From Gammaproteobacteria bacterium (GTDB lineage Bacteria; Pseudomonadota; Gammaproteobacteria; Poriferisulfidales; Poriferisulfidaceae), in the NCBI GenBank assembly GCA_026713705.1, contig JAPONY010000055.1, positions 3,227 through 67,226 on the forward strand: a stretch of DNA of 64,000 nucleotides. Direction: 5' to 3'. Position 1 is the first letter of the stretch; the number at the start of each line of letters is the position of its first letter. This document shows, piece by piece, positions 33,670 to 60,479 of the stretch. A program made the position numbers and the translations under genes. A model generated the notes under the pieces. The model did no database searches, was not told where the DNA came from, and saw only the letters and a program-made list of their open reading frames with translations.

Positions 33670-33698
33670 ATGCAAGTCGGGGGGAGCCCTTCCGGCCC

Positions 33699-34313: not shown

Positions 34314-34320
34314 GCGTGAT

Positions 34321-34501: not shown

Positions 34502-34505
34502 GTGT

Positions 34506-34640
34506 AAATTGCAAGAAAGAAACTTTACATTTCTAAAACCATTACAAATAAAAATTTTATTTATCAATATTTTATATTAGATAAAGGCAGTTATAAAAAC
34601 CGGCTGTTTTTCCTAAAATTGAAAGAAAGTTATACATCAC
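34506..34640 (+). repeat. Degenerate copy C of the AT-rich repeated element
   Basis: AAACTTTACATTTCTAAAACCATTACAAATAAAA...AACCGGCTGTTTTTCC aligns with copy A, including a decayed inverted repeat. The downstream block CAGAGGTGTTATATTTAT (34662-34679) is also shared with copy A (33866-33883). Confidence 0.5.
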
Positions 34641-34785
34641 AATAGATGTGCCAACTATTCTAATCAGAGGTGTTATATTTATAGTTAGCCCTACTAGGTT
34701 CTGAAGGCGGAACCTGTCGAACCTATAATTTCAATTGCTTTGGTTTCGAATGACTAGACATACGGAATCATAAGGAGAAATTACT

Positions 34786-35013
34786 GTGCTCAACATTTAC
34801 CGGGTTGCCTATGATCTGGAAAAAAGTGGGTTCACCGAGTCGCAGGCCGAAGCGGTGGTCTCCGCCTTGAAGGACATTCAGAAAGACCGCCCAACAAAAC
34901 TCGACGTAAAGGCTGATCTGGCTACTTTAGAGGCGCGCCTGATTTTTGGGTTTGGTTTAGCGATAGTCATCCTCGAGACTGTGGTTATCGCTTTGGTTAT
35001 CAGGGTGTTGTGA
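34786..35013 (+). CDS. DUF1640-like small coiled-coil/TM protein, paralog B (GTG start)
   Basis: SD AAGGAG 8 nt upstream of the GTG. YDLEKSGFTESQAEAVVSAL...PTKLDVKADLATLEARL with a C-terminal TM helix. 75 aa. Confidence 0.5.
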   Translation: MLNIYRVAYDLEKSGFTESQAEAVVSALKDIQKDRPTKLDVKADLATLEARLIFGFGLAIVILETVVIALVIRVL

Positions 35014-45514: not shown

Positions 45515-46247
45515 GCCGGAATTCGTCTATCCGGATTGGCCCGCGCCTGACCACGTGCGAGCGGCGACGAGCACTCGGGCCGGGGGGGTCAGTCGGAACG
45601 CTTATGCAGGATTCAACCTTGCCGCGCATGTGGACGACCGGCCTGAGGATGTACAGCAGAACCGGGAGATTTTGGCGCAGACCCTTCGGTTGCCTGGCGA
45701 ACCGTATTGGCTGGATCAGCAACATGGTGCCATGGTTCAGGAGGCGCGGATCACACCAGAATTGGTCAAGGCAGACGCGAGCTACACCACCTGCGCGGGA
45801 CCGATCTGTGTTGTCCAGACAGCAGACTGCTTGCCGGTTTTGCTGTGCTCACGAAAAGGCGATTGGGTGGCTGCAGCACATGCCGGTTGGAAGGGCATTG
45901 CTGCGAATGTCCTGCAGGCGGCAATTCATGCCTACCCGGGACCGCCAGAGGATCTGCTAGTTTGGCTCGGCCCGGCAATCAGTATGGAATTCTATGAGGT
46001 GGATGAGCTGGTGCGGGCGGCATTGGGCAAGGAACTTGCTTCGGTGGCATTCCGTCCGTCTGGGCGTGCTGGACACTGGTTGTTGGATCTGACGTCTGCC
46101 GCCGCATGGCAGTTAGAGCGGGCCGGTGTCGAGCACTGTTACGGTGCCGAAGAATGTACTTTTCAGGATGAGCGCCGTTTTTATTCGTACCGCCGAGATC
46201 GGATAACTGGGCGTATGGCGACGTTGATCTGGATGGAAAAGCATTAA
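45507..46247 (+). CDS. pgeF: Peptidoglycan editing factor PgeF (YfiH/DUF152, purine nucleoside phosphorylase-like)
   Basis: 246 aa. Conserved H/C/H residues (DQQHG, TADCLPVLL, AAHAGWKG). GTG start overlapping rluD by 8 nt. Confidence 0.8.
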   Translation: MTEPEFVYPDWPAPDHVRAATSTRAGGVSRNAYAGFNLAAHVDDRPEDVQQNREILAQTLRLPGEPYWLDQQHGAMVQEARITPELVKADASYTTCAGPICVVQTADCLPVLLCSRKGDWVAAAHAGWKGIAANVLQAAIHAYPGPPEDLLVWLGPAISMEFYEVDELVRAALGKELASVAFRPSGRAGHWLLDLTSAAAWQLERAGVEHCYGAEECTFQDERRFYSYRRDRITGRMATLIWMEKH

Positions 46248-46355
46248 TTCCAGCCAAAATCAAACTGATGAGCCGGATAGCAATCAGGTGAAGGTTTCAG
46301 CAGGCCGATCCGGCCAAGATGCCTAAATGTAAGTAATTGATTCATGAGTGAGAAA

Positions 46356-46383
46356 AATGGTCTAAAAAATCTGACCATTTTTT
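46356..46383 (+). repeat. Partial copy D of the repeated element (inverted-repeat part only)
   Basis: AAAATGGTC-TAAAAAATCT-GACCATTTT lies 60 nt upstream of the first T4SS-module gene. Confidence 0.6.
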
Positions 46384-46446
46384 GTTTACTTCTCGGAAAC
46401 TTTGCGGTAGAACCAAATTCTTTGCAAATTTCTCTAGGAGGCACGG

Positions 46447-47097
46447 ATGAATTTCCAAAAATCATCCCGGACACGCTGGCGGGTGTGGTTGGCAGGCGGA
46501 GTCTTTTCTCTGTTATTACTGGCTGCGCTTGTCCACGAGATGTTACGAGGTTCGAACGAGACATTTGCATTTTCTGATCCAGGTGTTCAGCTACTTCAGC
46601 CAACAGAGCTTCCGTCGGCGGCAAGTGCAATTCCCGAAATCGATATGAAACTGTTGTCGGAATCTTTGGCACAGACTCTGGACAACCGTCTTAACAAATG
46701 GGATCAACGCAACCTTGAAGTGTTCGAAAAAACCTTTCTGTCTCAGATGCGAACATTCGAAAAATGGAGGGAAGGGCTTGACGAGAAACTCAAAACACAA
46801 TCCTCCAGGCTACAGGGCATGGACCAGAAGCTGCACTTGCTTGAGCGTGGCATGAACCGGTTGCTAGGTTCCCTTGAAGACGAAGCGATTCAGGTGTCCA
46901 TGGAGCCTGAGTTCATTTTTCGGGGCATTGAAGTCTGGCATGGGCAAGCGTATGCGCTGCTTGAGCACCAAGGGCGGATTTTGCCAGCACGGCAGGGAGA
47001 CTCTCGGCTAGGCTGGAGAATCAACGCCATTGACCGCGATAATCAGAAATTACACATCAGCGACGGTATGACGAAACTTATCCTGGAGGAACAATGA
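46447..47097 (+). CDS. ICE/T4SS-module protein: N-terminal TM anchor, coiled coil, C-terminal beta-rich domain (function unknown)
   Basis: 216 aa. First gene of the co-directional cluster. Its stop overlaps the next start (ATGA). Confidence 0.45.
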   Translation: MNFQKSSRTRWRVWLAGGVFSLLLLAALVHEMLRGSNETFAFSDPGVQLLQPTELPSAASAIPEIDMKLLSESLAQTLDNRLNKWDQRNLEVFEKTFLSQMRTFEKWREGLDEKLKTQSSRLQGMDQKLHLLERGMNRLLGSLEDEAIQVSMEPEFIFRGIEVWHGQAYALLEHQGRILPARQGDSRLGWRINAIDRDNQKLHISDGMTKLILEEQ

Positions 47098-47480
47098 GCA
47101 GGGTGTGGCGCCGGGAAGCCGGATGGTTGATAGGGCTTACGGCCCTAGCTGGAGTTGCGGCATCCGTAATTCTTGATGTGCAGGCGGCGCGCGAAGAAGC
47201 GAGTCAGTGGCAGAAAACCGACCTCCGTGTGCTTCGCTGGCTGGAATTGAGCGAGGAGGAATGGCGTCAATATCAATCGTGGCGCTCCTTGATTGGCAAG
47301 CCACTGGCCGAAATGACTCCATACGAGGTCTTAGGGATTTATGCGGATGATGCAGAACAGCGGCGCCGGTTTGCTAGAGAGAATGCCCGTTTTATGCTTG
47401 ATTTCTACCGACGAACTATGGAATTTGAACAGATTTACCGAGAAGAATTGGGAAAGCTTTCGGGCGAACAAAGGCCTTAA
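47094..47480 (+). CDS. ICE/T4SS-module small protein with N-terminal TM helix
   Basis: 128 aa. Translationally coupled to the upstream gene. Confidence 0.4.
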   Translation: MSRVWRREAGWLIGLTALAGVAASVILDVQAAREEASQWQKTDLRVLRWLELSEEEWRQYQSWRSLIGKPLAEMTPYEVLGIYADDAEQRRRFARENARFMLDFYRRTMEFEQIYREELGKLSGEQRP

Positions 47481-47600
47481 ACTTTACATAAGATAAAAAA
47501 CTTTACATTTCCCAAAGCTTTACAGATAAATTTATTATTTATCAGTATGTTAATAAGCAAATAAATGGTCAAAAAAAACTGACCATTTTTCCTTGCTTTC
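47478..47600 (+). repeat. AT-rich repeated regulatory element, copy B (3x CTTTACA + IR AAATGGTC-N10-GACCATTTT)
   Basis: AACTTTACATAAGATAAAAAACTTTACATTTCCCAAAGCTTTACAGATAAA...AAATGGTCAAAAAAAACTGACCATTTTTCCTTGC. Collinear with copy A at 33699-33820. Confidence 0.7.
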
Positions 47601-47651
47601 TGGCAATGAGTGTTAGAGACTGCACAGGCGGTAATTACTCCCACGGATGGG

Positions 47652-47676
47652 GGGCCGTGTAGGGCCGCCCAGCCTT
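47652..47676 (+). promoter_or_regulatory. GC-rich hairpin in 5' leader of the main T4SS operon
   Basis: GGGCCGCCC-agcctta-GGGCGGCCC, a perfect 9-bp stem 35 nt upstream of the 47711 start. No U-tract follows. Confidence 0.35.
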
Positions 47677-47710
47677 AGGGCGGCCCTCAACTCCGCCCGG
47701 AGGCCTAAGA

Positions 47711-48124
47711 ATGAGACATGCTGAATGGCTGATTGGCACAACTGCGGCATTACTAGTGGCAGGGTGCGAGATGTTGCACTATGCGGTTCCGGTTTCGCAG
47801 CCCCGGGAACTGAGTCACATCCCGCGGCCAGGGTTGATTGACCATTCGGCATCTTCAAGGCTGACTCCCGACTATCTAGTGCGCCCGGACATGGGCGAGA
47901 GGCAGGTTCTTGGGCAACTTCTGCACGAATTGCAATTAGCCCGACACCTGATTGACGATGCTTACGAGCGCCGCGATGAGCGTGCTCGAGTGCGGGTGGA
48001 CTACGTGCGCTTAGCGGACGAATTCGACCGGATCGTGATCGGTTTGAGGCGCACTCTAACGGTGGCCGAAACGACACCGCGCGATCGCATGGACATCACC
48101 GGAGACTATCAATTGTATGAGTGA
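47711..48124 (+). CDS. ICE RAQPRD-family conjugative-transfer lipoprotein
   Basis: Lipobox (LLVAGC). Pattern L..L..ARHLIDDAYERRDERARVRVDY.RLADEFDRIVIGLRR....ETTPRDRMDITGDY matches the RAQPRD family consensus layout. Confidence 0.55.
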   Translation: MRHAEWLIGTTAALLVAGCEMLHYAVPVSQPRELSHIPRPGLIDHSASSRLTPDYLVRPDMGERQVLGQLLHELQLARHLIDDAYERRDERARVRVDYVRLADEFDRIVIGLRRTLTVAETTPRDRMDITGDYQLYE

Positions 48125-48356
48125 TTCCATGCTTGGTCAGTTCGAGGTAACTTCCGGCATCTCGGGCGAAGTTCTGGCGGAAATAACTGCTGCGACTTGC
48201 CTGCTAGTCGTGACTCTTTGGGTGTCGTGGGTGGCCGTCTCTAGTCTGCGGCAGTTACGTGACGAGACCTTAGCAGTCGGCGAAGTCGCCACTCGAATCC
48301 TGTGGGCCGGCTTGATGTTTTGCATGGTGGTCGCCCTGATTGCCTTTGTGGAGTAA
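48117..48356 (+). CDS. ICE small inner-membrane protein (PFL_4701/TIGR03758-like)
   Basis: 79 aa, two TM helices. Position and size match the small membrane proteins of GI-type T4SS. Confidence 0.4.
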   Translation: MSDSMLGQFEVTSGISGEVLAEITAATCLLVVTLWVSWVAVSSLRQLRDETLAVGEVATRILWAGLMFCMVVALIAFVE

Positions 48357-48359
48357 ATC

Positions 48360-48710
48360 ATGAGGAAACTTATTCTTGTTTTAGCGTGTGCTCTAGCGCT
48401 TCATCCGCGCTGGGGAATTGCTGTAAACACACTGGATTTGCCTGTCTTCGACGGTATTGCCGCTGATGCGACCGATCCCTTTTCATTTATTAAGTCCGTT
48501 GCGATCACAGGTATGGCTTTGGTGTTCGGCTTTCTTGTGGTGGGTGCCTTCCTCGGCTACGGCGGCGGTCTGATCGCAAAACTTAACCAAGCGCGCGTTA
48601 AGGGGGACTGGGGAAGCCTTGGAATTTACTTGGGCACCGGTTTGCTGGTCGTGATCATCATTGCCCTGATGGGCTACATGGGGGGGCAGATTCTGTCCGA
48701 CTTCGAATGA
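48360..48710 (+). CDS. ICE pilin-like membrane protein (TrbC/VirB2-like; PFL_4702/TIGR03745-like)
   Basis: Signal peptide plus two hydrophobic helices with a Gly-rich region (AFLGYGGGLIAKL). 116 aa. Confidence 0.45.
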   Translation: MRKLILVLACALALHPRWGIAVNTLDLPVFDGIAADATDPFSFIKSVAITGMALVFGFLVVGAFLGYGGGLIAKLNQARVKGDWGSLGIYLGTGLLVVIIIALMGYMGGQILSDFE

Positions 48711-49030
48711 CGCGCCCAGCTTCTCCACTCGGTTTTGAGCCGCCGATGTTTCGAGGGCTCAGTGGCACCGAATTGACCGCGGCAATAGTGTTATCGGTGG
48801 CACCAGGCACGGTGGGGGCAGGCATATTTTGTTTGTGGACTGGTTCCCTGTTGTGGGCTCTTCCGGTGCTGGTGCTGAATGCTTTCATCACGGTGTTGCT
48901 TGCAGGCACAGCGCTGAGGCACCTCAAGCGGAACCGGCCGCCCAACTGTTATCTGCAACGCGTTGCTCGCCACTTCAGACGAAGCGCCAATATCATCTGG
49001 CGGGAAGGATCCTGGAGGGTGGAGCGGTGA
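48707..49030 (+). CDS. ICE membrane protein (VirB3-like; TIGR03750-like)
   Basis: 107 aa, two TM helices. Translationally coupled on both sides. Confidence 0.4.
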   Translation: MTRPASPLGFEPPMFRGLSGTELTAAIVLSVAPGTVGAGIFCLWTGSLLWALPVLVLNAFITVLLAGTALRHLKRNRPPNCYLQRVARHFRRSANIIWREGSWRVER

Positions 49031-49659
49031 CACCTTGTAGCTTCCGTGACGAAGAACTGAACCGCCGTCGCTATGTCCGGGCACTGCAGGTCGGTCTGGT
49101 GTTTCTGGCAGTGTCACAGTTACTTGCTTACGCCGGCTGGTGGCATGCATCCGGGACGCAACGCCTGAGTCTGCCGCCCCAATTGCGCTATGGCGCAACT
49201 CTCCATGGTGATGTGGTGCATCCATGGGAAGTGTATGTTTTCGCCGGATACATCCACCAGCAGATTAACAATTGGACCGACAATGGCGCCATTGATAATT
49301 TGGAAAATATTCAACGCTTGGCGGCATTTCTCAGTCCAGACTACCGCTTCTGGCTGACACGTGAACATCAGCGCCATGAGGCTCAGTTCCGAAACCGACA
49401 ACGCAGTGTTAGCCCGGTTCTCGGGAGTTACAGCAATGAATCCGTACATCCATTAGGACAAGACACTTGGCAGGTCATTTTGGATGTTCGCCTCCGGGAC
49501 TATCTGGAGGATCAAATCTACAAAGATATTGATGTCCGTTATTTCTTGGAGGTCGTATTGCTGGATGCTGATCCCGAAACCAATGAGTGGGGATTGGTTC
49601 TGAATCGGCAGTACCAACCTCCTGAACGTTTACGTTCTCACCTGTCGGCTCTCGAATGA
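49027..49659 (+). CDS. ICE protein (PFL_4703/TIGR03746-like), N-terminal TM
   Basis: GTG start overlapping the upstream stop (GTGA); the track ORF from 48829 overlaps the previous gene. 210 aa. Confidence 0.4.
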   Translation: MTPCSFRDEELNRRRYVRALQVGLVFLAVSQLLAYAGWWHASGTQRLSLPPQLRYGATLHGDVVHPWEVYVFAGYIHQQINNWTDNGAIDNLENIQRLAAFLSPDYRFWLTREHQRHEAQFRNRQRSVSPVLGSYSNESVHPLGQDTWQVILDVRLRDYLEDQIYKDIDVRYFLEVVLLDADPETNEWGLVLNRQYQPPERLRSHLSALE

Positions 49660-50420
49660 GGTGGTTTCTAGCACTGCTGCTGTGCTTGGCGTCATCGACG
49701 GTTCTGGCGTCGTCGTCGCGGGTCTACACTGGTGATCCGCTTCCGGTACTGCTGCCGCTTGGTAAAGAGCGGCGAATCGAAATCGAGGGCGCACAGGAAG
49801 TTCGTGTCGGATTGTCTGCGGTACTGAAGGAAAGCTTGCGTGCCGAAAGCGCTGGTCCTCATGTTTGGTTAACTGCCCGGGATGCTTTGTCCCTGCAGCG
49901 TGTATACCTCAAAACCGAGACCGAGCTGTTGGTGTTGAAAGTTCGGACGGATCCCCAGGCACCGACGGAGCCGCTGAGCATCACGGTAGATCTGAAGGGC
50001 TCCAGATCTTCTCCTTCGTTTTCACCGGACAGACAGCCAAGCTATGTGGCGCTGATGCGTTATGCCATCCAAGCCTTGTATGCGCCCGACTACCGTGAAG
50101 ATCTGGTTTCCAAAATCCGGCAGGTTCTTATCGATGAACAGCCGGTGGCCCTGTTTCGTTGTCGGGAAACATATCCGTCCGCGTGTGGGGATGCGGTCGA
50201 GTCTATTCCCCATGCTGCATGGGAGGCACTTCCTTATTACATAACCGCAGTCACGGTACGCAATCGCCTGCCTGAATCCCTGACGCTTGACCCTCGCGAT
50301 CTCCGCGGGCGATTTGCGGCATCCGCCATCGTACACCCTCGTTTGGAGGCATCTGGAAGCGTCCGAGATACGACGACTGTGGTGCTGATTTCGAGTATCC
50401 CGTTTGAGCACGCCCAATGA
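49656..50420 (+). CDS. ICE periplasmic protein with signal peptide (PFL_4704/TIGR03749-like; VirB9-like role possible)
   Basis: Signal peptide MRWFLALLLCLASSTVLA. 254 aa. Coupled starts on both sides. Confidence 0.4.
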   Translation: MRWFLALLLCLASSTVLASSSRVYTGDPLPVLLPLGKERRIEIEGAQEVRVGLSAVLKESLRAESAGPHVWLTARDALSLQRVYLKTETELLVLKVRTDPQAPTEPLSITVDLKGSRSSPSFSPDRQPSYVALMRYAIQALYAPDYREDLVSKIRQVLIDEQPVALFRCRETYPSACGDAVESIPHAAWEALPYYITAVTVRNRLPESLTLDPRDLRGRFAASAIVHPRLEASGSVRDTTTVVLISSIPFEHAQ

Positions 50421-51649
50421 ACGCGCGCAGCCCGCTGCTTAAGTTGCTTGCCGGGGTTGCCTTGTTGCTTGCACTATCGGTGACATTCCTGTCCACTTCT
50501 CCGCCACCGGCTGAGCCGGAGATTCTAGTTCCCTCCAGTCGAGAACTAGATGAAGCCGCTGAGGAAGTCCGAGCCGCGGCGACCGGCATGCGCCGCTTGG
50601 AGCAAAAGATTTCAGATCAGGCGGAACAAATCCGGGAACTGGACGAATCACTTGTTGAGTTGTCCTCCCGCGTTGAACAACTGGTGCAACACAGGCGGCG
50701 GCAAGAGGAGGCGCAGACATCCAAATCATCTCCACTCTCATCGGGCGAGGCACCCGAGAAAGGGGAAGCATTTGATCTGGACACCTTGACCTATGAGCCT
50801 CCATCCAACACGGAGGCCGAGCTTTCGACGCCTCAATTTGACTTGCCACTGACTTGGGTAGAGCCGATTGATAGTGACAGGGCGTTACAGCGCAATTTGG
50901 CGGCAGTTTCGGGCAATCTGGTCGCGGGGGAAGAGACCGATAAACCACCAAGGTTCTACATCCCGCCGTCTATCCTGTCCGGATTGTCCCTGACTGCTTT
51001 GGTTGGACGCATCCCGCGTGGCGGGGCCGTGCAGGACCCGTGGCCATTCGTCGTGGTGAGCCAAGCCGACAATTTGACGGCAAACGGCGTGCGCCTTCCT
51101 CAATTGCGTGGCATCCTGTGGCGTGGCGTCGTCCGTGGCGACGCAGTGCTGTCCTGTGCAAGCGCGTCCATCCGGAGCCTGGTCTATGTGTTCGATGATG
51201 GAACATTTCATGTTGCAAAGGCGCCAGCGCAGGAGGGTTTCGGCTATCTAGCCGATAAGTCTGGCAATCCCTGCCTGGTGGGAGAGATTCATACCACGGC
51301 CCCAGAGGATATGGGCACGCATCTGTTGGCCGGTGTTCTGGCCGGCATGGGTGGGGCTTTTGCTGAGTCTCAGGTGCGGCGCAATGTCTCCGGGGGAACC
51401 GAAACGTCTCAAGTGGAGGGAGATGCTTTCAGCTACCTGCTAGGCCAGACGGTTCAAGGTGCAGCCTCCGCATACGGCGACTATCTGCTGCGGTTTGCCA
51501 ACGATACTTGGGATGCAGTGGTAGTCCCGGCCGGTCGCGAAGTGGACATCCATATCACGGACAGCATCCCTGTCATCCATTCACCAACCCGGACGATCTA
51601 TGACGATCCGATTCCTTCCTTGGCTGTGTCTTTTGGCGGTCTGGATTAG
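50417..51649 (+). CDS. ICE protein (PFL_4705/TIGR03752-like; VirB10-like topology: N-terminal TM, coiled coil, C-terminal beta domain)
   Basis: 410 aa. Has a TM helix, a coiled-coil segment (EEVRAAATGMRRLEQKISDQAEQIRELDESLVELSSRVEQL), a Pro/Ser-rich linker and a conserved C-terminal domain. Confidence 0.45.
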   Translation: MNARSPLLKLLAGVALLLALSVTFLSTSPPPAEPEILVPSSRELDEAAEEVRAAATGMRRLEQKISDQAEQIRELDESLVELSSRVEQLVQHRRRQEEAQTSKSSPLSSGEAPEKGEAFDLDTLTYEPPSNTEAELSTPQFDLPLTWVEPIDSDRALQRNLAAVSGNLVAGEETDKPPRFYIPPSILSGLSLTALVGRIPRGGAVQDPWPFVVVSQADNLTANGVRLPQLRGILWRGVVRGDAVLSCASASIRSLVYVFDDGTFHVAKAPAQEGFGYLADKSGNPCLVGEIHTTAPEDMGTHLLAGVLAGMGGAFAESQVRRNVSGGTETSQVEGDAFSYLLGQTVQGAASAYGDYLLRFANDTWDAVVVPAGREVDIHITDSIPVIHSPTRTIYDDPIPSLAVSFGGLD

Positions 51650-51953
51650 TGCCTGTGCTGCTCCGGCCGAACTCCCGGAAACCGCGAGCACGGTGCGTGA
51701 TCTATACCGGCAGGCTATGCCGTCTGGAACGCCTGCGCCCATGCCTCGCCCGCTGCCAGTCCAACCGGGCATGGGTAGCCCCTTCATGGCCGAAGTGGAC
51801 CGACAGTTGCGTCGAGACTTCAGGGAGTTCCCCAACCCGCGACTGATCCTGTATGTCTATCCACACCTTACAGCCGATGGAACCCCGGTTCCCGGGTATG
51901 CCACTTGGTTCAACGTCTTCGAGCGCGGCCCGACCCTGAAGGTTGTGCGTTGA
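51600..51953 (+). CDS. ICE conjugative-transfer-region lipoprotein (TIGR03751-like)
   Basis: Lipobox LLAVWISAC. 117 aa. Overlaps the upstream gene by 50 nt. Confidence 0.45.
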   Translation: MTIRFLPWLCLLAVWISACAAPAELPETASTVRDLYRQAMPSGTPAPMPRPLPVQPGMGSPFMAEVDRQLRRDFREFPNPRLILYVYPHLTADGTPVPGYATWFNVFERGPTLKVVR

Positions 51954-52079
51954 AAAGTCAAGAAAAATGAATAACAAAAAATCATCACACCCAAGGAATA
52001 GGGATCCTAGAAGAAACGGTTATTGCCCTGTTTGTCTTCGATGTGGCTTTGCCACTGTGTTTCTGCCGAGGACGGGGCC

Positions 52080-52367
52080 ATGCTGAGTATTCGCGTTTTT
52101 CAGCTCTTGGCTGTCGGGCTGTGCCTGCTTCTGATCGCGAAGTACATGCAGTTCATGCAGGCGACGGTTCGTGGGCTGGATCGTCTGATGATGCGGCGCT
52201 TCTTCGACGTGGATGGATTGACAAACGAGATTCGGGCCAGAGTGGAACGCAATGGCGGGGACCCACCAACTCGACACTCCTCGGAAGGATTCATGTGCCG
52301 CGCTGCTTATTTGTGGCTTTGTCGTCGCCTGCGGCAGGTGGCTGGCTTGGATTCTAGGGTCGACTGA
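52080..52367 (+). CDS. ICE small membrane protein
   Basis: Start uncertain (52023 or 52080). One TM helix. Its stop overlaps the TraU-like start. Confidence 0.3.
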   Translation: MLSIRVFQLLAVGLCLLLIAKYMQFMQATVRGLDRLMMRRFFDVDGLTNEIRARVERNGGDPPTRHSSEGFMCRAAYLWLCRRLRQVAGLDSRVD

Positions 52368-53473
52368 TGCGCTTTCCGGTCCTGGCCAGTTTGTTCTTGT
52401 GCAGCCTTTCTATGGCAATGGCCGAGACGTTCAGTACGGCGGACGTGGCGCGGCGTTCACTCCAATCCAACTGCTTGGACTGGAAGATAGTCGGAGTATG
52501 CCTGTGGCTTCATTGCAAATACGGGCGCTGCCGAATCAATACCACGCCACGAGTCCGACACTATTTGCCGGACTTGGTTTTCACTGCATACGACCAGACC
52601 GGGGCTCCACCTTGGACGGAACTTCGCACCCTGTTGGATTTGGATTCTCCTTTGGGAGACCTGTTGCAGGGAGGATCGTTTCCGTCCACGGATGCCTCGG
52701 ACGGTCACACCCTGCGATTCAAGGAAGTCGATGCAGTTGGGCATCCGTTCCCGCTACGGCAGAAAGTCTTCAATGTGGTCTACCTGTGCCGCTCTCAGGC
52801 CAAGCCGATGTTTCCGTACTTTGTATCTGCACTCGACCACATGGAGTGGCGAGGTGGATTGGAATCTGCACGTCCAGAGAGCCTAACCCCGGGCTTGCGT
52901 GAAATCGGCGATTGGCCAAGAAATTCGTGGGGGTCGGTCTTTCCGCGCACCGGTTTCGTGTGGCAGGCTGAAGATGTAAAGGCGGCCGCCGTGGCCGTAC
53001 AGCGCGCTGCCGACATCGTGACTCAACCGAATCAGGCCCGGGTGTACGTGCCGTTCGGCTATGACGGCCACCGCCGGGTCACGCACGGAAACCCAAATGC
53101 CCCAAACCGCGAAGCCTGCGAACGGTCAGGAGGATTGTGGCGTTCTGATTCTCCAGTTCCAGAGCCTTCCCACTGTGCATCCACGGCCCCGCTGGAGGAG
53201 TGCATGACTGCCGCACCCCCGCCGTCGCACACACAATCCGGACATTGCCGCCAGCAGGCGCAATTGGCTTGGCTGCCCTCGATCAACGAGCGCAACGCGC
53301 GCTGGCAGATGATCAGCCCGCGCACGCAGTCGCGTTGCGAAACCTTCGGATCTCCCTCGAATTGGTCGTTCGACAAGACCAGCGAAGACGGGAGTTATGC
53401 CTGGAACCTGTGGCGTCCCTACGAATGTTGCGCCCCGGGCAAAGGGAAATTCATTGGCCACAAAACTTTCTGA
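52367..53473 (+). CDS. ICE TraU-like conjugal transfer protein (PFL_4710 family), Cys-rich, secreted
   Basis: Signal peptide. Many conserved Cys residues (CLDWKIVGVCLWLHC, CC near the C-terminus). 368 aa; size and composition match TraU homologs of GI-type T4SS. Confidence 0.5.
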   Translation: MRFPVLASLFLCSLSMAMAETFSTADVARRSLQSNCLDWKIVGVCLWLHCKYGRCRINTTPRVRHYLPDLVFTAYDQTGAPPWTELRTLLDLDSPLGDLLQGGSFPSTDASDGHTLRFKEVDAVGHPFPLRQKVFNVVYLCRSQAKPMFPYFVSALDHMEWRGGLESARPESLTPGLREIGDWPRNSWGSVFPRTGFVWQAEDVKAAAVAVQRAADIVTQPNQARVYVPFGYDGHRRVTHGNPNAPNREACERSGGLWRSDSPVPEPSHCASTAPLEECMTAAPPPSHTQSGHCRQQAQLAWLPSINERNARWQMISPRTQSRCETFGSPSNWSFDKTSEDGSYAWNLWRPYECCAPGKGKFIGHKTF

Positions 53474-53533
53474 GGAGGAACCATCGTGGGCAAAAAGAAA
53501 AAATCAAAAAAGAAAGTCACTCTGGAACGCATC

Positions 53534-53722
53534 ATGGCCCAGCCGATCGCCAAGCGGCTGTATGTGTCGTTAATCCCGATTGATAACCTGCTGGGCGACA
53601 TGAGGATGGAAATCGATGAAGGAGAACGTGCCGAGGATGATTCCTACTACGTTCGAATTCAGGAATTGCGTGAAGGTTTGGTCCAGACTCTGGACGAGGT
53701 ATTACAGGACTGCGATGAGTGA
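53534..53722 (+). CDS. Small acidic hypothetical protein
   Basis: 62-78 aa; the start could be 53486 (Lys-rich N-terminus) or 53534. Its stop overlaps the TraC start. Confidence 0.3.
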   Translation: MAQPIAKRLYVSLIPIDNLLGDMRMEIDEGERAEDDSYYVRIQELREGLVQTLDEVLQDCDE

Positions 53723-56507
53723 TCGCAAGCGGAATGCGTTTGACCGCTGGCTCGCCGGACTTCGTCCGGCGTTGCCAGCGGATCCAAGACACGCGCCGAA
53801 TGCGGGAGCTAGTTGCTGGAGCGGGCAGGGCCGCCGACCTTTAACCCGGGCACAATTTGCGCGTCCGATAGCGGGGAGTAAATCCGTTTTGCAGGAGATA
53901 AGAACTTCGGCATCCTTTGCGGAGTTACTGTTCCCCAAGGCCGCACTTGGGCCGGAGATGATTCTGATGAAGGATCTATGCAGTGTCGGCCGTTTGTTCG
54001 ATCTGGCTCCCGCACATACCGAAGGAAGGCCGGACAACATTATCGAGGACCTCCACCAGCGCCTGATGCCTTTGTTGCGTGACGTATTTCCGCAAAACCA
54101 GCGCAGGCCATGGGTGGCACAGTTTTTTGTGTATGACCGCCATCACCTAGCCGACGATCTTCAGGCACTTGAGCAGTATCTAAACTCGATGACTCGGAAT
54201 TCGGTCTATTCGCAGCACTGGATGGAAGTGTTACGCGAACACTACCAAGATGCCTGTAAAAAGAATGGTTTTTTCTTTGATCCGGTTAGTCAAACGCCGT
54301 GGAAAGGGAAAATACGATGCATACGATTGTGTGTTTGGCGCATTGAGGAGCCGGGTGGGGTCCCGGATGGACAGCACCTCGACGATCTATGCGAACGCCT
54401 GACTCATTCATTAGCTCAGGTGGGCATTCGTTTGATGCCTTTGAGTGGCGAGGATCTCTGCCGTTGGCTGGATGACTGGTTCGGCCCAGCCCAAGAAGCC
54501 GCGGATACCCCCAAGGTGCCACTGGCCGCTACACCGTTGACCTTGCTAAAAGGCACGGCCTTGGGAGATTTGGCGCATCGGGCCCTGCGGCGCGGTGCTC
54601 CATGGTCCTCAGCCAGTAATAACTGCTGGTATTTCCATGGTCGTCCACATCGCTTTCTGACGGTCAACGCGATCCTAGGGGAACCACGAATCGGACACTT
54701 GACTGCTGAGCGAATGATCGGGGACCGCCGGCAGACGCTCTGGGATCAGATGCCAGAAGAGGCAATCTGGATGATGGCTGTGGTGTTTGCCCCGCAGGAT
54801 GACATTTTGGAACATGTCGCCCGTGTTAAGCGTAATGCGGTCGGCGGTGATCCGCAGGCGATGGCCATCCGCACCCTTGCAGAAGAAGCAGTGCAGCAAG
54901 TGTCCGATGGCAATCCGATCATGCCGGTGTTTAGTGGCGTCTTCATTTCAGCACCGGATGACGACATTCTGGAGCAGCGGGTCCGGGGATTGTCTGCCAC
55001 TCTAATGGCTCACGGTATTGCGTTGATTCCCCCAAGGGATGATCCCTTGGCTCAGGATTCCTATATTCGTGCACTGCCATTCAATTTCAGCCCAGAGCAA
55101 GATCAGCGCTTCTACGTACGCCGTTCCCGTCTGTGGTTCATGGATCATGTGGTGAGGTGCCTGCCGGTATACGGACGCTCCACCGGAACGCGGCATCCGG
55201 GCCTAATGGCATGGAATCGTGGCGCAGAGCCGCTGTCATTCGATCCGCTTAATCCGGTGGATAGGACCAAGAATGCGCACTTATTCGTATTCGGACCGAC
55301 TGGCTCCGGAAAAACCGCTTTTCTCGTCAATACATTACTGCATACAGTCGCAGTACACCGTCCCCGGCTGTACCTAATAACGGCATTGCCAACATTTGGC
55401 TTGCTCGCGAAACACTTCAAGTCGCAAGGCTTATCGGTGAATCATGTCAACGGAGATCGGACCTCGATTCCTCCGTTTGCAGATGCCCGATTGCTCTTGG
55501 GTGCCGGCTCGGCACCCGCCGCCGACAGGGTGGAGGACGAGGTCGAGCGTGACCTTCTGGGCGAAATGGAGATACAGGCAAGGCTGATGGTTACGGGTGG
55601 AGATCCGAAAGAAGAGCAGCGCTTCACGCGCGAGGACCTGAATCTGATTCGAAAGTCATTGTTGGCGGTCGCTAATGCTGCTGCGAATCACCCGGACACA
55701 CCAGTGTTAACCCAGAATTTGTCGGACTTGATGCACCGGGCAGCCGAATCCGGACGACTGCAGGACGACATGCTGAGCGAGGATCAGCGGCGCAGCCTGA
55801 GTCGGATGGCTAATTCGATTGAACTGTTCTGCACTGGGCAGGCGGGGGAGATATTCAACCGCCCAGGAGAAACTTGGGTCGAGTCCGATGTGACCGTGGT
55901 GGAACTGGGGGCGTTGGCGCATCGGCGCAATGAGGCGTGGTTGGCAGTGGCAATGAGTGGGCTGCTGTCCCGCATCAATGACCAAGTACAGGCTCAGCAA
56001 TATTCTGCCCGGCAGACCGTCGTGGTTCTGGACGAAGCGCATCTGCTCCTGAAGAATCCATTAATTTCTCCCTACATCCTGTCAATTTCCGCAATGTGGC
56101 GCACATATGGCGCTTGGTTGTGGATCGCAACTCAAAGCCTGCGTCAGATTCCGGAAACCGCGCGTGAACTTCTAAATCAGCCGGAGTGGTGGATTTGCAT
56201 GGCCATGGAGCAGGACGAGGTAGACATGATCGGACGATTTCGAAGGCTTGACGAAGAGCAGAAAGCGATGATTCTGTCCGCCCGCAAGGAGTCTGGCAAA
56301 TATACCGAAGGTGTGGTGATGTCCGGCAAGTTGATGACTCCGTTTCGCAATGTTGTGCCAGCGTTGTCGCTAGCCCTGAGCCAGACGGAGAAAGATGAGA
56401 AAGCGCATCGGGCCAGTCTCATGCGGCAGCACGGATGCACGGAACTTGAGGCGGTTCACCGGATCAGCGAGTCGATTCGTCAGCAACGCCAAGGGCGGGA
56501 ACCATGA
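53715..56507 (+). CDS. traC: Conjugative transfer ATPase TraC/VirB4 family (ICE PFL_4706-type)
   Basis: 930 aa. Walker A FVFGPTGSGKTAFLVNTLL, Walker B-like VVVLDEAHLLL. Size and domain order match VirB4-class ATPases of GI-type T4SS. Confidence 0.7.
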   Translation: MSDRKRNAFDRWLAGLRPALPADPRHAPNAGASCWSGQGRRPLTRAQFARPIAGSKSVLQEIRTSASFAELLFPKAALGPEMILMKDLCSVGRLFDLAPAHTEGRPDNIIEDLHQRLMPLLRDVFPQNQRRPWVAQFFVYDRHHLADDLQALEQYLNSMTRNSVYSQHWMEVLREHYQDACKKNGFFFDPVSQTPWKGKIRCIRLCVWRIEEPGGVPDGQHLDDLCERLTHSLAQVGIRLMPLSGEDLCRWLDDWFGPAQEAADTPKVPLAATPLTLLKGTALGDLAHRALRRGAPWSSASNNCWYFHGRPHRFLTVNAILGEPRIGHLTAERMIGDRRQTLWDQMPEEAIWMMAVVFAPQDDILEHVARVKRNAVGGDPQAMAIRTLAEEAVQQVSDGNPIMPVFSGVFISAPDDDILEQRVRGLSATLMAHGIALIPPRDDPLAQDSYIRALPFNFSPEQDQRFYVRRSRLWFMDHVVRCLPVYGRSTGTRHPGLMAWNRGAEPLSFDPLNPVDRTKNAHLFVFGPTGSGKTAFLVNTLLHTVAVHRPRLYLITALPTFGLLAKHFKSQGLSVNHVNGDRTSIPPFADARLLLGAGSAPAADRVEDEVERDLLGEMEIQARLMVTGGDPKEEQRFTREDLNLIRKSLLAVANAAANHPDTPVLTQNLSDLMHRAAESGRLQDDMLSEDQRRSLSRMANSIELFCTGQAGEIFNRPGETWVESDVTVVELGALAHRRNEAWLAVAMSGLLSRINDQVQAQQYSARQTVVVLDEAHLLLKNPLISPYILSISAMWRTYGAWLWIATQSLRQIPETARELLNQPEWWICMAMEQDEVDMIGRFRRLDEEQKAMILSARKESGKYTEGVVMSGKLMTPFRNVVPALSLALSQTEKDEKAHRASLMRQHGCTELEAVHRISESIRQQRQGREP

Positions 56508-57832
56508 CTGTTTGGGTTCGCGCTTGTGCGTGGGGTCTGATCCTATCAATAATCCCCACAGTCTCCGATGCGCAAATCAAGCTTCCGAGCAGTGAGGAAT
56601 TGGGTTTGTATTACACGCTTGGGGGTTCGCGTGCGGTTCCCCCGACTCCCGGCCAGACGTTACGCATCAAACTGCTTCCAGACATTCAGGCGGGGGCTAC
56701 CTACAGCTGCGGAAAGTTCGACTTTCGCTTTCAGGTCGAAGAAATCCTAAAACGGTTGGAAGATCAACTAACGACCCTGAAATCGCTTCCGGAACAGATC
56801 CTTTTGGCCTTGCCGGGCGGTTTGTTCTGTCGGGCCTTTCCAGGTGCCTGTCAGTTGATGCAGTACTACACCATCCGCGCGGGTGAAGCATATAAGTTAG
56901 CGCTTGGCTCCTGCCAGGAAATAGAGAAAGGGATTGCCGATCGGGGGCCTGCTGGCGCTTGGACGAAGATTGCCAAGTCGCTGGAGTGGGGGCAGCAGGC
57001 GCATGAGGGAAGCAATGTGCTGGAAGCACAGGAAGAAGCGGAGGAAGCTCCCGAAAAGGGATTGGCTTGGGTTGGCGGCCAACGTGCAGGGGGTGTAGGT
57101 CAGGACTTAATTCGCCCGGTTTATGACAGCACTCGTGCCGGGTGGTGTCTGCTGAACGGTGAGCCGGTCACATGCCGGGAATCCGAACGTACAACTGAAA
57201 TTTCAAGTTTGTTCGAGACTCCAGAAGCTGCAGCGAATTGGTTGGTCGACATCTCTGGTGAACAGGCCATCAGTTTGGTTGACAGTGCGCCGAGTCCGAC
57301 TATTACCGGACATGGTCTGTTGCCTTTGATCGAGACCGAGCGACAACGCATCGAGGAAATTCTGCAGCGGTTGGTCAAAACCGATCTGGTGGAATTAACA
57401 AGCGAAGATTTGACGAACATCTCAAGCCGCAATCTGGCGATGCGTCGGGAAATTATCGACGGTTTGCAAGCCCATCCGGATGCGGAATGGCGTATTCAGC
57501 GCTTGGCGTCGGAGTTGGCGACTGCGCGAATCGTGGAGAAGACCTTTGTTGCTAGGGCCGCCTTGATGGCAGGGCGCCAAGAACCGAATGTTGCGGCATT
57601 GGCTCCAGCCCAGGAGGCGCTGGGCACGGCATTCGAACGCATCAATCATCAGGTGGATTTCGTACTGAATGAAGTGCAAGCTTCGCACCGCTTGGCGTCC
57701 GAAACGATCCGGACCTTTATCGAATACGAAATGCTCGGTGGCGTCCTCAAGCCGATCCGGTTGAGTCCTCCCGAGGATACCGATTCCCGATTGATCGATG
57801 GCGGGTTTCCACTTCCGAAGGAAGAACCCTAA
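56504..57832 (+). CDS. ICE protein with signal peptide (PFL_4711/TIGR03755-like)
   Basis: 442 aa. N-terminal signal peptide. Coupled to traC and the following gene. Confidence 0.4.
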   Translation: MTVWVRACAWGLILSIIPTVSDAQIKLPSSEELGLYYTLGGSRAVPPTPGQTLRIKLLPDIQAGATYSCGKFDFRFQVEEILKRLEDQLTTLKSLPEQILLALPGGLFCRAFPGACQLMQYYTIRAGEAYKLALGSCQEIEKGIADRGPAGAWTKIAKSLEWGQQAHEGSNVLEAQEEAEEAPEKGLAWVGGQRAGGVGQDLIRPVYDSTRAGWCLLNGEPVTCRESERTTEISSLFETPEAAANWLVDISGEQAISLVDSAPSPTITGHGLLPLIETERQRIEEILQRLVKTDLVELTSEDLTNISSRNLAMRREIIDGLQAHPDAEWRIQRLASELATARIVEKTFVARAALMAGRQEPNVAALAPAQEALGTAFERINHQVDFVLNEVQASHRLASETIRTFIEYEMLGGVLKPIRLSPPEDTDSRLIDGGFPLPKEEP

Positions 57833-58203
57833 TGGATAGTTTCCGGGTGCGCCGCATACTTTGGTTCCTGCTGGCTATCTTGGCGGGAGGAACAGTATTT
57901 TTCTATGCGGCACAGCAATTGGCGGATGCGACTCCAGACTCTTTGGGTCGTACGGCCGCCATCATGTCGCGGTGGAAAGACTTCTTTGAGCGCTATGGTC
58001 TCTGGCTTCACCTGGGTGCACACGGGGCAACCTACCTGTACCTGATTTTGCGTTGGCCACAACTGGTCTGCTGGGTCGATCGGCGGCGGGCCGCACGGGG
58101 ATACACGCCGCTGTCGGTGGTCGAGCAGCGCCGGCTGGTGTGGGCCGTGATCACTGTCTGCGTGACTTACGAAGGCTTGTTGATGTTGCGCTATCTGGAT
58201 TGA
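57832..58203 (+). CDS. ICE small membrane protein
   Basis: 123 aa, three hydrophobic helices. Confidence 0.35.
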   Translation: MDSFRVRRILWFLLAILAGGTVFFYAAQQLADATPDSLGRTAAIMSRWKDFFERYGLWLHLGAHGATYLYLILRWPQLVCWVDRRRAARGYTPLSVVEQRRLVWAVITVCVTYEGLLMLRYLD

Positions 58204-58208
58204 CGGGA

Positions 58209-59780
58209 ATGTACGCGACGATCCCCGCGTTCAGCCACATAGAGGTCTACTTGACCATGTTTGGCTGGAGCATGTACGAGCTACTGTTCGAACTGGCCGA
58301 CGACCTCAACCTGCTCCTGATTCCATTTCTGGTGGTGATCGTTCGCAACTTCATTGTTCCGCTTAGCACCGAAAACATTTTCCCTAACAGCGGGGGTTCT
58401 GTCAGTCAGATGAGAGTGGACCTCCCGGTGGCACTGGTGGTGTTCATTTTCATGGTCGTGCCTTATGTCAAGGTTGAGCCGAACTCTATCGAATACACCC
58501 CGGTCTGCCAACTTGGAAGTGTTACTCATACCTACGGGGACACTGGCACTACTTACGACACCACCCAGTTGGCCCGTTTTCATGAGAAACATCCCAGAGT
58601 TCCAATATTCTGGGCCGTGGTGCTGTCGGTCAGTGGTGGCATCACTCAGGCCGTGCTGCAGCATTTGCCATGCTTTCAGGATTACTCTGGGCTCGCATTC
58701 CGAACCCGCCACGCTTTCATCAAGGACCCGGGCATCCGCCAGGAATTTGATCATTTTGCTAGTCAGTGCTTTGTGCCAGCTTGGCGAAAATATGAGATCT
58801 TCCGGCCTTCAGAAGAAATTGTGCCGCGTAAGGATGCAGAGTATCCGGGTAACCGCTATTTTCTGGAAGAGCCTGGATATTACGCTCTATGCAGCGCGGT
58901 CACGGAGCAGGGCGCCTGTTCGTTCGATCCCTACCCCCGGCCTCGAACGACGGTCAAGCGTTGGAAGGGGGATCATCAGTTGCCAGTTTGCCGGGACTGG
59001 TGGCTTGGCAATGGAGAGAATGAGGGCTTGTTGAAAATTCTGGCACGCTTTGTGCCAGATATGGACTGGATTGCGGACTTCACCAAGGGGACTTATAGCC
59101 AGGACTTCATTGAAGAACAAATGGTTCGCAACACTATCCTCAACGGTCCGCGTCGTTATGGCATCGGTGGGCCAGACAATGAGATACTGGCAGGCCTTGC
59201 AGCGTTTGCCGCAGGCTCTGGAATTGCCAGTGGTTTGGCTGCCTGGGCTGCGAGCGGTAGCCTTGCGGCATTCACGCTATCCACTGCGGTTGGCGCAACT
59301 GCTTTCGTCGGGTCCGAAGCACTGGGGCTGTATGCCCGGTTGCATATCATGCGGCGGATTGCGCCCATGGCGCAGAGCCTGATGCTGATGGTGCTGTATA
59401 TGCTTCTGGGAGCGTATTTGTTCCTGACTTTCTACAGCCTAACGGCGGCCCTGAGAATCATGATCATGATAGTGGCGGTCCGGTTGTTTTCAATGATGTT
59501 TGGCATATCGAATTTCCTTGACGATACGCTGATAGATGCAATGTATCCCGGTATGAAGCTTGGCGATGCCGGGCGCTGGGAAGTGGACCGGATCGCTCTT
59601 GGCTACGGCACGATGGCATTACACATGCTGCTGCCCCTGGGAATGTTGTGGGTGATTTATGCAGCGGGTAATGCTGCCATGCGAGGGTTGGATGCGCTGG
59701 GGCCCTCTTCGGATCCGACCGGAGTCGGAAATGCCGGTCGCGTCAGCACTCTAGGGATGGCGCGCAACATCAAACGATGA
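58209..59780 (+). CDS. traG: TraG-N-like polytopic membrane conjugation protein (mating-pair stabilisation family)
   Basis: 523 aa with 8+ TM helices. Last gene of the cluster. The track start at 58053 overlaps the previous gene; the ATG at 58209 is preferred. Confidence 0.45.
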   Translation: MYATIPAFSHIEVYLTMFGWSMYELLFELADDLNLLLIPFLVVIVRNFIVPLSTENIFPNSGGSVSQMRVDLPVALVVFIFMVVPYVKVEPNSIEYTPVCQLGSVTHTYGDTGTTYDTTQLARFHEKHPRVPIFWAVVLSVSGGITQAVLQHLPCFQDYSGLAFRTRHAFIKDPGIRQEFDHFASQCFVPAWRKYEIFRPSEEIVPRKDAEYPGNRYFLEEPGYYALCSAVTEQGACSFDPYPRPRTTVKRWKGDHQLPVCRDWWLGNGENEGLLKILARFVPDMDWIADFTKGTYSQDFIEEQMVRNTILNGPRRYGIGGPDNEILAGLAAFAAGSGIASGLAAWAASGSLAAFTLSTAVGATAFVGSEALGLYARLHIMRRIAPMAQSLMLMVLYMLLGAYLFLTFYSLTAALRIMIMIVAVRLFSMMFGISNFLDDTLIDAMYPGMKLGDAGRWEVDRIALGYGTMALHMLLPLGMLWVIYAAGNAAMRGLDALGPSSDPTGVGNAGRVSTLGMARNIKR

Positions 59781-59966
59781 TACGGAATTCGGAGTAGACA
59801 TGAGGTTCGCACGGACTGTTTTCTTTGAACCAAAGGAGGGTCTATTCGGATTGTTGGGGGCCCGCGTCCACGTGTTTCCCTCTAAGCCATCGCGTATGAG
59901 ATCAATGCGAAGAACCAGCCTATCCGAATCGATGGTTGATCACACTTTCATTCAAGGAGGAATTTT

Positions 59967-60479
59967 ATGACATCACCAAATCCAAAAACCAGCCACACCA
60001 AAAGTGTAGCGAAGCCAACACCGCCACCAAATTTTGATACTATGAGTGCTATGAGAATGCTGACGAAAGCTGGCTTCACTCAGGATCAGGCAAGTGCCAT
60101 AGTTGGGACTGTGCGCGATGCTCAACGTGAACTTGCCACAAAAACCGACTTGGACCAGGCAGTTGGTGAACTGAAGGCTGACTTGGGCCTAGCGTTTAGT
60201 GAACTGAAGGCTGACTTGGGCCTAGCGTTTAATGGACTGAAAGCAGATTCGGACTTGGCGTTGAGTGGATTGAAGGCAGATTCGGGCTTGGCATTTAGTG
60301 GATTGAGGGCAGAGATGGAGGCCATGAAATTTACGTTGCAAAAAAATCTGGAAGAGCAAGACAGTAAGGTAGAGCGACAATTCACTCAACTCTATCGGCA
60401 TCTTTGGATTGGCACGGGCATGACTATCACTGCGGTAACCAGCATCCTCGGCATGATGATAGTTTTTTCTGGCGGATAA
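59967..60479 (+). CDS. DUF1640-like coiled-coil/TM protein, paralog C, with internal 11-aa tandem repeats
   Basis: Strong SD (AAGGAGG) 7 nt upstream. ...TKAGFTQDQASAIVGTVRDAQRELATKTDLDQAVGELKADLGLAFS x4, with a C-terminal TM helix. 170 aa. Confidence 0.55.
   Translation: MTSPNPKTSHTKSVAKPTPPPNFDTMSAMRMLTKAGFTQDQASAIVGTVRDAQRELATKTDLDQAVGELKADLGLAFSELKADLGLAFNGLKADSDLALSGLKADSGLAFSGLRAEMEAMKFTLQKNLEEQDSKVERQFTQLYRHLWIGTGMTITAVTSILGMMIVFSGG
60168..60299 (+). repeat. 4 tandem copies of a 33-bp repeat inside the DUF1640-like gene
   Basis: GAACTGAAGGCTGACTTGGGCCTAGCGTTTAGT repeated; copies 1 and 2 differ by 1 nt, copies 3 and 4 are diverged. The repeat is in-frame, encoding ELKADLGLAFS units. 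Confidence 0.85.

Follow-up and report, generated by a model that had tools for sequence, protein, structure and literature searches.

The locus described here raises the question of whether a small membrane protein encoded immediately behind a type IV secretion system (T4SS) belongs to that system or is a chromosomal protein of another kind. The window, by which we mean the whole stretch of DNA that was analyzed, comprises 64,000 nucleotides of contig JAPONY010000055.1 (positions 3,227 to 67,226; assembly GCA_026713705.1) from a gammaproteobacterium of the Poriferisulfidaceae. The gene in question, gene C, encodes a protein with in-frame tandem repeats and a C-terminal transmembrane (TM) segment (Table 1), and two paralogs, A and B, are found elsewhere in the window. 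We consider it likely that gene C encodes a tail-anchored rod composed of head, neck, stalk and anchor, that this rod varies in its number of repeats, that the gene is chromosomal, and that its adjacency to the T4SS is incidental.

Gene C opens the conserved right flank of a hotspot for island insertion. The island, which is derived from an integrative and conjugative element (ICE), ends at a junction (59817/59818) that lies 149 nt before the gene C start codon. This junction is where homology between the window and the related locus L002 begins (window position 59818), and homology between L001 and L002 similarly begins 148 nt before the ATG; L001 and L002 encode an identical 203-aa protein and share 99.5% identity over the 5.2 kb downstream. 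The genes downstream of C-type genes are constant (rhodanese/YgaP, purH and groES/EL). Upstream of the C-type gene there is a T4SS in the window, L001, L005, L007 and L017, a three-gene methyltransferase cluster in L002 and L003, and an MmeI-like gene in L004 (the locus of ortholog P0003). Given the variable upstream region, the constant downstream region and the position of the junction, gene C is outside the island. A sequence-only reading of this DNA had put gene C at the distal end of the T4SS module, which is correct as a position and incorrect as a statement of membership. A scan of reference genomes gave one locus (OY288106.1), and the comparative context comes mostly from metagenome contigs, two of which (JGI 3300027327 Ga0209543_1000485 and Logan SRR8092709) match the window at 100% identity across 12.4 kb.

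The open reading frame (ORF) of gene C is intact, with an ATG start and a GGAGG ribosome-binding site (RBS). Tandem Repeats Finder reports a period of 33 at 60166..60313 (4.5 copies, 85% matches, no indels, score 149), and in frame the units read ELKADLGLAFS, ELKADLGLAFN, GLKADSDLALS and GLKADSGLAFS, with GLRAEMEAMKF as a degenerate fifth. Nucleotide identity is 32 of 33 between units 1 and 2, 28 of 33 between units 3 and 4, and 23-25 of 33 between the two pairs. The sequence-only reading had described four or more in-frame 33-bp repeats, two of them nearly identical, and had expected the coiled-coil length to be prone to recombinational change; the array fits the description, and comparison across strains bears out the expectation. 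C-type orthologs are 203, 182, 170, 164, 143, 125 and 109 aa long and have 0 to 7 clear units, and all of the length differences fall within the 11-aa array, with the head, neck, distal stalk and anchor conserved. P0001 corresponds to the window protein plus exactly three units, and in DNA the difference from L001 is a single in-frame 99-bp indel with near-identical flanks. The close DNA identity of neighboring units may allow whole units to be gained or lost through unequal recombination or replication slippage. One identical 203-aa allele (P0001) is found in L001, L002 and L003, and P0002, which is 97% identical to the window protein, has an equal unit count; both observations argue against rapid switching.

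The composition of the units is informative about the stalk. In a set of 41 C-type units, hydrophobic residues occupy position 2 in 98%, position 6 in 68%, position 9 in 88% and position 10 in 66%, as in the a/d/e/h core of a hendecad coiled coil, and the hydrophobic moment is highest near 3.6 residues per turn. Several C-type alleles, P0001 and P0004 among them, have a 22-residue super-period in which ADL- and ADS-type units alternate. At a helix rise of approximately 0.148 nm per residue, each 11-aa unit alters the rod by about 1.6 nm.

Repeat number varies in all three related lineages found, that is, the C-type, the A-type and the nonad-type. A-type orthologs vary by the 17-aa unit KDYPTKEELRADLKAAL, of which the window protein has one and P0007 has five (211 = 143 + 4x17 aa), the count in this lineage ranging from 0 to 5. 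The nonad-type lineage has about 1 to 15 copies of FATKDDLxN nonads, a repeat of the type found in Tcar0761 (see below), with a difference of exactly one nonad between P0034 and P0035. More distantly related genes stand alone on the chromosome and keep their synteny between genomes while differing in repeat number (for instance, P0075 with 181 aa and P0093 with 146 aa). In other branches of the family, P0205 and P0207 have tandem stalk units of 11 or 22 residues (ADLQELRSEMK twice, and units of the type DMADLKTELKGDMSALKAEFKS), which suggests that hendecad repeat expansion recurs across DUF1640 proteins. The variation in stalk length may be adaptive or merely tolerated.

Judging by its sequence, gene C is a bacterial member of the MCUR1/CCDC90B (DUF1640) family, a known kind of protein; the sequence-only reading had already called it DUF1640-like. 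PF07798 (CCDC90-like, formerly DUF1640) is the top Pfam match of all three window proteins, with E-values of 6e-6 (C), 1.5e-5 (A) and 1.2e-4 (B); gene C covers profile positions 1-66 only, which correspond to the head and neck and to the first third of the model. PF07798 is weak or faint in the precomputed annotation of orthologs P0001-P0006, and NCBIfam has no family for C, A or B. We aligned the three window proteins with their relatives, 35 sequences in all, searched the PDB with the resulting family profile, and found 6h9m (human CCDC90B 43-125 fused to GCN4) at E=7.2e-5, in an alignment that superposes the head motif PmFDtlqvtkeLkksGlaepQAeAiVsaf. The same profile found 6h9l at E=1.3e-3 and 5apz, the α/β coiled coil of Tcar0761, at E=2.6e-3, and a profile of C-type sequences only gave E=0.33 for 6h9m. 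A HMMER search of 1.84 billion representatives returned 5,740 family members at E<=1e-3, of which 294 reach E<=1e-10; almost all of the members are 105-200 aa long and matched from head to anchor. The neck is also characteristic. Hartmann et al. 2016 defined the β-layer consensus [aliphatic]-A-T-K-[polar]-[DE] and named DUF1640 proteins as membrane proteins with a β-layer motif at the start of the stalk (PMC4786415). The corresponding residues are LATKTD in C, MVTKDD in A (with V for A) and RPTKLD, a partial motif, in B, and across the 35-sequence alignment T58, K59 and D61 show little or no variation.

The AlphaFold2 (AF2) monomer model of gene C has a mean confidence (pLDDT) of 72.7 and places helices at residues 25-34 and 39-56, a break at A57-T58 and an unbroken helix from 59 to 168, with pLDDT of 84-93 across the repeats and 56-74 in the head. 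This predicted helix, the hendecad pattern and the C-terminal hydrophobic segment are consistent with the coiled-coil and TM architecture suggested earlier. In the structure that we propose, a two-helix head of approximately 35 residues would be joined via a single β-layer neck to one long α-helix ending in the TM segment. By homology with solved relatives, the gene C helix would most likely form a parallel homotrimeric coiled coil, and the group as a whole is said to consist of trimeric "head-neck-stalk-anchor" proteins.

Gene C has no signal peptide and no N-terminal hydrophobic segment, and its single TM segment is at the extreme C-terminus. Hydropathy is maximal at aa 148-166 in C (best 19-aa Kyte-Doolittle window 1.73), 114-132 in A and 54-72 in B, and 3-11 residues follow the TM segment. 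Lys and Arg residues are biased to its N-terminal side (3 vs 0 in C, 5 vs 1 in A, 2 vs 1 in B), and by the positive-inside rule the head and stalk are predicted to be cytoplasmic. A surface or entry-exclusion role, as suggested in the sequence-only reading, is at odds with these features. The predicted orientation agrees with that of the yeast DUF1640 relatives Put6 and Put7, which face the mitochondrial matrix (PMC7519068). By likeness to these mitochondrial relatives, which are matrix-facing scaffold proteins, gene C would most likely be an inner-membrane-tethered scaffold or spacer that presents its head, away from the membrane, to a partner.

Table 1. Coordinates of the features of the window discussed in the text (position 1 is the first nucleotide of the window).
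Feature	Position	Strand	Basis and remarks
spoT 3' end, copy 1 of 181-nt direct repeat	33495..33675	+	94% identity between copies, spacing 832 nt
Promoter-palindrome-leader module upstream of A	33703..33881	+	Three CTTTACA boxes; palindrome 33786-33807; leader CGGTACAACAGGGG
Paralog A, 143 aa	33882..34313	+	Same head, neck MVTKDD, 17-aa repeat stalk (one full unit), TM; ortholog P0007
spoT 3' end, copy 2 of 181-nt direct repeat	34327..34507	+	Carries a 63-aa ACT-domain fragment, ORF 34310..34501
Degenerate module copy upstream of B	34517..34682	+	
Paralog B, 75 aa, minimal	34786..35013	+	Head, RPTKLD, TM; ancestral upstream ATG now ATA, palindrome degenerate
yfiH, left flank of hotspot	45507..46247		
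ICE-derived T4SS island of the MPF-G (mating-pair formation) type, 13.5 kb, between yfiH and gene C	46343..59817	+	Pfam/NCBIfam; junctions by L002 alignment
Palindrome copy	46357..46378	+	14 nt inside the left island junction, upstream of ORF 46447..47097
Module upstream of RAQPRD-family ORF 47711..48124, T4SS operon	47480..47600	+	Palindrome at 47565
Gene C leader, conserved, 149 nt, outside island	59818..59966	+	Kept whichever island adjoins
Gene C, predicted tail-anchored DUF1640/CCDC90-like protein, 170 aa	59967..60479	+	ORF, weak PF07798, orthologs P0001-P0006, AF2
Gene C N-terminal tail, aa 1-21, Lys/Pro/Thr-rich, predicted disordered	59967..60029	+	pLDDT <50
Gene C head, aa 23-56, two short helices	60033..60134	+	FDT...L..GF..QA.AIV motif; aligns with 6h9m head
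Gene C neck LATKTD (L56-D61), β-layer motif	60132..60149	+	Consensus of PMC4786415; AF2 helix break at 57-58
Gene C 11-aa hendecad array, 33 bp in frame	60168..60332	+	Four clear units 60168-60299; degenerate fifth 60300-60332
Gene C TM anchor, aa 148-166	60408..60464	+	Kyte-Doolittle; followed only by FSGG (four residues)

Several points weigh against the rod model. The PF07798 scores (26.6 bits for C, 25.4 for A and 22.4 for B) are below the gathering score of 33.5, which is an operational cut-off and not a biological feature. When the monomer model was compared with the PDB using Foldseek, 6h9m was top-ranked at a score that is not significant (E=2.1, TM-score 0.23/0.40), in a fold search to which an elongated single helix is ill-suited. 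Most stalk units contain Gly, and the TM segment of gene C is only moderately hydrophobic. In the literature searched, no experimental function was found for any prokaryotic member of the family. Furthermore, an insertion sequence (IS) disrupts the C-type gene of L017, so gene C is dispensable in at least one genome; this disruption and the low GC content of gene C (0.48, vs approximately 0.60 for spoT and recG) suggest a dispensable and possibly fast-evolving gene.

At the disrupted locus (L017, 9001-10960), the equivalent of window positions 60153-60556 is replaced by about 1.8 kb with a rve-family transposase gene, and what is left of the C-type gene is a 91-aa stump from which the repeats and the anchor are gone. 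Base composition changes along the window: GC content is approximately 0.60-0.65 over the initial 45 kb and drops to 0.49-0.54 past 60 kb, despite the core genes there; rhodanese/YgaP (0.52) and purH (0.55) are part of this low-GC stretch, in which gene C is lowest. Scans for sigma-70 promoter and terminator consensus sequences near gene C and near A and B gave no excess over shuffled sequence.

The relationship among the three window proteins is real and distant. They had been described as paralogs with a shared N-terminal block and a C-terminal TM helix, which is correct, but BLASTP identity among them is 29-41% over the N-terminal 50-68 aa only, and both BLAST and profile comparisons find the head to be the sole region kept. 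Profile-profile comparison of the C-type with the A-type gives 97% probability (E=6e-11) over 47 columns. The start of paralog A had been placed at 33975, but a 31-aa N-terminal extension and a GAGGTG RBS are kept in all orthologs, so the start is at 33882. Upstream of paralog B (34658-34800), the conserved start context GAGGTGTTATATTTATG reads TTTATAG and the ancestral ATG is lost; the present start is a GTG some 100 nt further on, with an AAGGAG RBS, and the N-terminal extension is missing. Given also a Glu within its TM segment, paralog B may be a decaying or minimal copy.

Paralogs A and B are located between spoT and ridA/recG, a housekeeping locus, and the same is true in L009. The 181-nt direct repeat marks a tandem duplication of a segment comprising the spoT 3' end, the promoter module and the DUF1640 gene, and this arrangement of duplicated spoT ends is kept in L009, where the product equivalent to the 63-aa fragment (8633-8824) matches PF13291. 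The two DUF1640 genes of L009 agree almost completely in the head but not in the TM anchor, a pattern that points to gene conversion of the 5' parts or to module shuffling. In two genomes the nonad-type gene is found between rph and parE/parC. An association of the paralogs with ICEs in other genomes, which the sequence-only reading had put forward for checking, is not what we see: A and B are at spoT-recG, the nonad type is at rph-parE, and C-type genes also occur beside methyltransferase islands. There are several fast-varying paralogs per small genome.

Among phage proteins, two PHROG families, phrog_17872 and phrog_9415, match at E=4e-7 to 5e-9, and both are of unknown function. Searches of phages by tblastn gave weak matches to gene C in five Bordetella phages only and no match to A. 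The homolog in the temperate Bordetella phage vB_BaM-IFTN1 (L028, 28308-28694) is weak (31.7% identity, E=6e-4), and is a lone, moron-like gene on the opposite strand of the early region, between antirepressor and HNH endonuclease genes. Links of the family as a whole to mobile elements are confined to these two PHROG families and the Bordetella phages.

The island next to gene C encodes DUF2895, DUF3438, TIGR03752, TraU, TraC, TIGR03755, TraG_N and a RAQPRD-family protein, and its ORFs match NCBIfam TIGR03752, TIGR03755, TIGR03759 and TIGR01690. It contains no integrase, relaxase or coupling-protein gene. Neither a tRNA scan nor an Rfam gathering scan of the whole window found anything, which leaves the island without a tRNA attachment site, and a search for direct repeats flanking it (45400-60000) returned only short, chance-level pairs and no att-like repeat. 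The island is 90.3% identical between the window and L001, compared with 90.5% for the core flank, and at least 22 contigs carry it at this same site beside yfiH. Given the lack of an integrase and a relaxase, the core-like divergence and the shared site, it looks like an old, vertically inherited ICE remnant, and possibly a domesticated partial T4SS.

The link that had been drawn between all copies and the ICE-linked element or T4SS survives in part, in that A and B share a promoter-palindrome module with two island operons, whereas gene C lacks it. The palindrome is ATGGTC-N10-GACCAT, and the CTTTACA boxes include a plausible TTTACA -35 element with a TATAAA-like -10 element. As RNA, the palindrome has a folding energy of -14 to -21 kcal/mol (z = -2.3 to -5.5), with a U-run behind it, and it could be an operator or a leader hairpin. 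It lies 93-96 nt from the start codon in both spoT-linked genes of L009 and in the nonad-type genes of L010 and L011; the module positions are 7905 and 8940 in L009, 7907 in L010 and 7908 in L011, and the module also occurs in L022-L027. The island copies comprise the promoter and palindrome part, and are kept in other copies of the island; the palindrome at 46357 is conserved in L018-L021, L023 and L025. An exact-pattern scan of metagenomes returned only seven sites: three precede DUF1640-type genes, three fall at the two ICE positions and one is truncated by a contig end. Within the sequences searched, the module is confined to A-type and nonad-type DUF1640 genes, which it precedes, and to two places in the T4SS island. 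On this sequence pattern, we suspect that it is a lineage-specific regulatory link between A-type and nonad-type genes and ICE operons, and not evidence for gene C in the ICE. A broader scenario, in which the stalk paralogs and the inherited T4SS of this sponge-symbiont lineage share a private module as a co-regulated envelope apparatus, with stalk lengths (repeat periods of 9, 11 and 17 residues) tuned by selection and gene C a divergent member from which the module was lost, seems to us very unlikely.

Other readings of gene C have to be weighed against the chromosomal rod. An accessory role in the ICE or its T4SS, for instance as an entry-exclusion factor or a surface stalk of varied length, would be in keeping with the position of the gene directly downstream of the TraG_N gene in the window, L001, L005, L007 and L017, and with the module that A and B share with two ICE operons. 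However, the junction lies 149 nt upstream of gene C, the identical P0001 sits beside a non-T4SS island in L002 and L003, and P0003 sits beside an MmeI-like gene in L004; gene C itself lacks the shared module and a signal peptide and is predicted to be cytoplasmic. Given also that a tblastn search of 72,556 plasmids found no match, and that there is no match to a conjugation family in NCBIfam, we regard this role as extremely improbable, and synteny essentially excludes it; it is largely refuted. A role in conflict (superinfection exclusion, phage defence or as a phage target), with the repeats under diversifying selection, would explain why gene C sits at the edge of a hotspot that contains methyltransferase, restriction-modification or ICE DNA, and could also account for the low GC content, the several fast-varying paralogs per small genome, the PHROG matches and the moron-like homolog in temperate Bordetella phages. 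Nevertheless, the best of the PADLOC defence profiles (PDC-M40C, E=0.028 for C, with nothing for A or B) is not meaningful, the sister paralogs are in housekeeping loci far from defence islands, gene C is in the conserved flank and not in the variable island, and the phage matches are weak and of unknown function. We consider such a role quite unlikely.

The repeats themselves admit two more interpretations. As an alternative to a coiled coil, the 11- and 22-residue repeats could form an amphipathic helix on the cytoplasmic face of the membrane, similar to apolipoproteins, perilipins or synucleins, with the number of units setting the contact area. The family profile matches apolipoprotein A-IV at E=1.3e-4 (E=0.017 with the C-type profile), there is a weak Pfam Apolipoprotein match, and the 11-aa period, the 22-aa super-period in P0001 and P0004 and the peak of hydrophobic moment near 3.6 residues per turn would all be expected of such a helix. 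This reading is unlikely, in our view, because the apolipoprotein matches are confined to the repeat regions and may reflect composition, there are no Pro punctuations, the a/d/e/h pattern fits a hendecad coiled coil equally well, and the solved relatives of the family (6h9m and 5apz) are coiled-coil constructs with a β-layer neck. Alternatively, the changes in copy number could be programmed, rapid contingency switching of the phase-variation type, as opposed to slow polymorphism among strains. Adjacent units that are identical at 32 of 33 nt, and whole-unit differences between lineages that are about 90% identical in DNA, would permit this. Yet on/off switching is absent, since every change keeps the reading frame. 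The array consists of a small number of long units (33 bp), P0002 and the window do not differ in unit count, and L001-L003 share one 203-aa allele, a sign of stability over short periods. We regard programmed switching as highly doubtful.

If gene C is the chromosomal rod that we propose, a tempting annotation should be corrected, since the gene would encode a member of the MCUR1/CCDC90B family and not a conjugation or entry-exclusion factor. These lineages also provide a natural length series (0-7 hendecads, 0-5 17-aa units and approximately 1-15 nonads) on otherwise conserved heads and anchors. It would lend itself to tests of whether stalk length matters in this family and to work on non-heptad periodicities of coiled coils. 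The promoter-palindrome module gives a concrete and testable starting point for finding a regulator that may link A-type and nonad-type genes with a domesticated T4SS.

Among known systems, human CCDC90B/MCUR1 has in common with gene C the FDT...L...GF..QAE.IV head, a β-layer neck, a coiled-coil stalk and a C-terminal anchor. The bulk of CCDC90B/MCUR1 faces the matrix, the counterpart of the bacterial cytoplasm in the predicted orientation of gene C. In the eukaryotic proteins there is a mitochondrial targeting sequence, and the stalk is built on heptads and has no tandem array that varies among strains, whereas gene C has a hendecad array of variable copy number, and its partner cannot be MCU. 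Braun's lipoprotein (Lpp) and the stalks of trimeric autotransporter adhesins are, as is proposed for gene C, trimeric coiled-coil rods that are anchored at one end and have non-heptad periods, and their length, set by repeat number, sets a distance. They are periplasmic or surface structures with signal peptides, in contrast to the predicted cytoplasmic, tail-anchored gene C, and share no sequence homology with it beyond β-layer and coiled-coil features, so the comparison is one of analogy only. Apolipoproteins A-I and A-IV resemble gene C in the 11-residue period, the 22-residue super-period and the amphipathic helix; unlike them, gene C has an anchor and a head and lacks Pro-punctuated 22-mers, and there is no homology outside the repeats.

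Among prokaryotic proteins, Tcar0761 of Thermosinus carboxydivorans (PDB 5APZ) is an α/β coiled coil with 14 MATKDDIAN nonads (PMC4786415). It shares an ATK-type β-layer motif with gene C, and its repeats are like the FATKDDLxN nonads of the nonad-type sisters; tandem 9-residue ATK(D/E) units are present in P0021-P0043 and P0063 and absent from C, A and B. Gene C differs from Tcar0761 in having a single ATK motif and an 11-residue period without ATK, and its stalk is therefore predicted to be a continuous helix and not a series of alternating α and β layers. The yeast DUF1640 proteins Put6 and Put7 (Fmp32 and Ylr283w) have a role in mitochondrial proline metabolism without an evident counterpart here (PMC7519068), and they differ from gene C in showing no repeat polymorphism.

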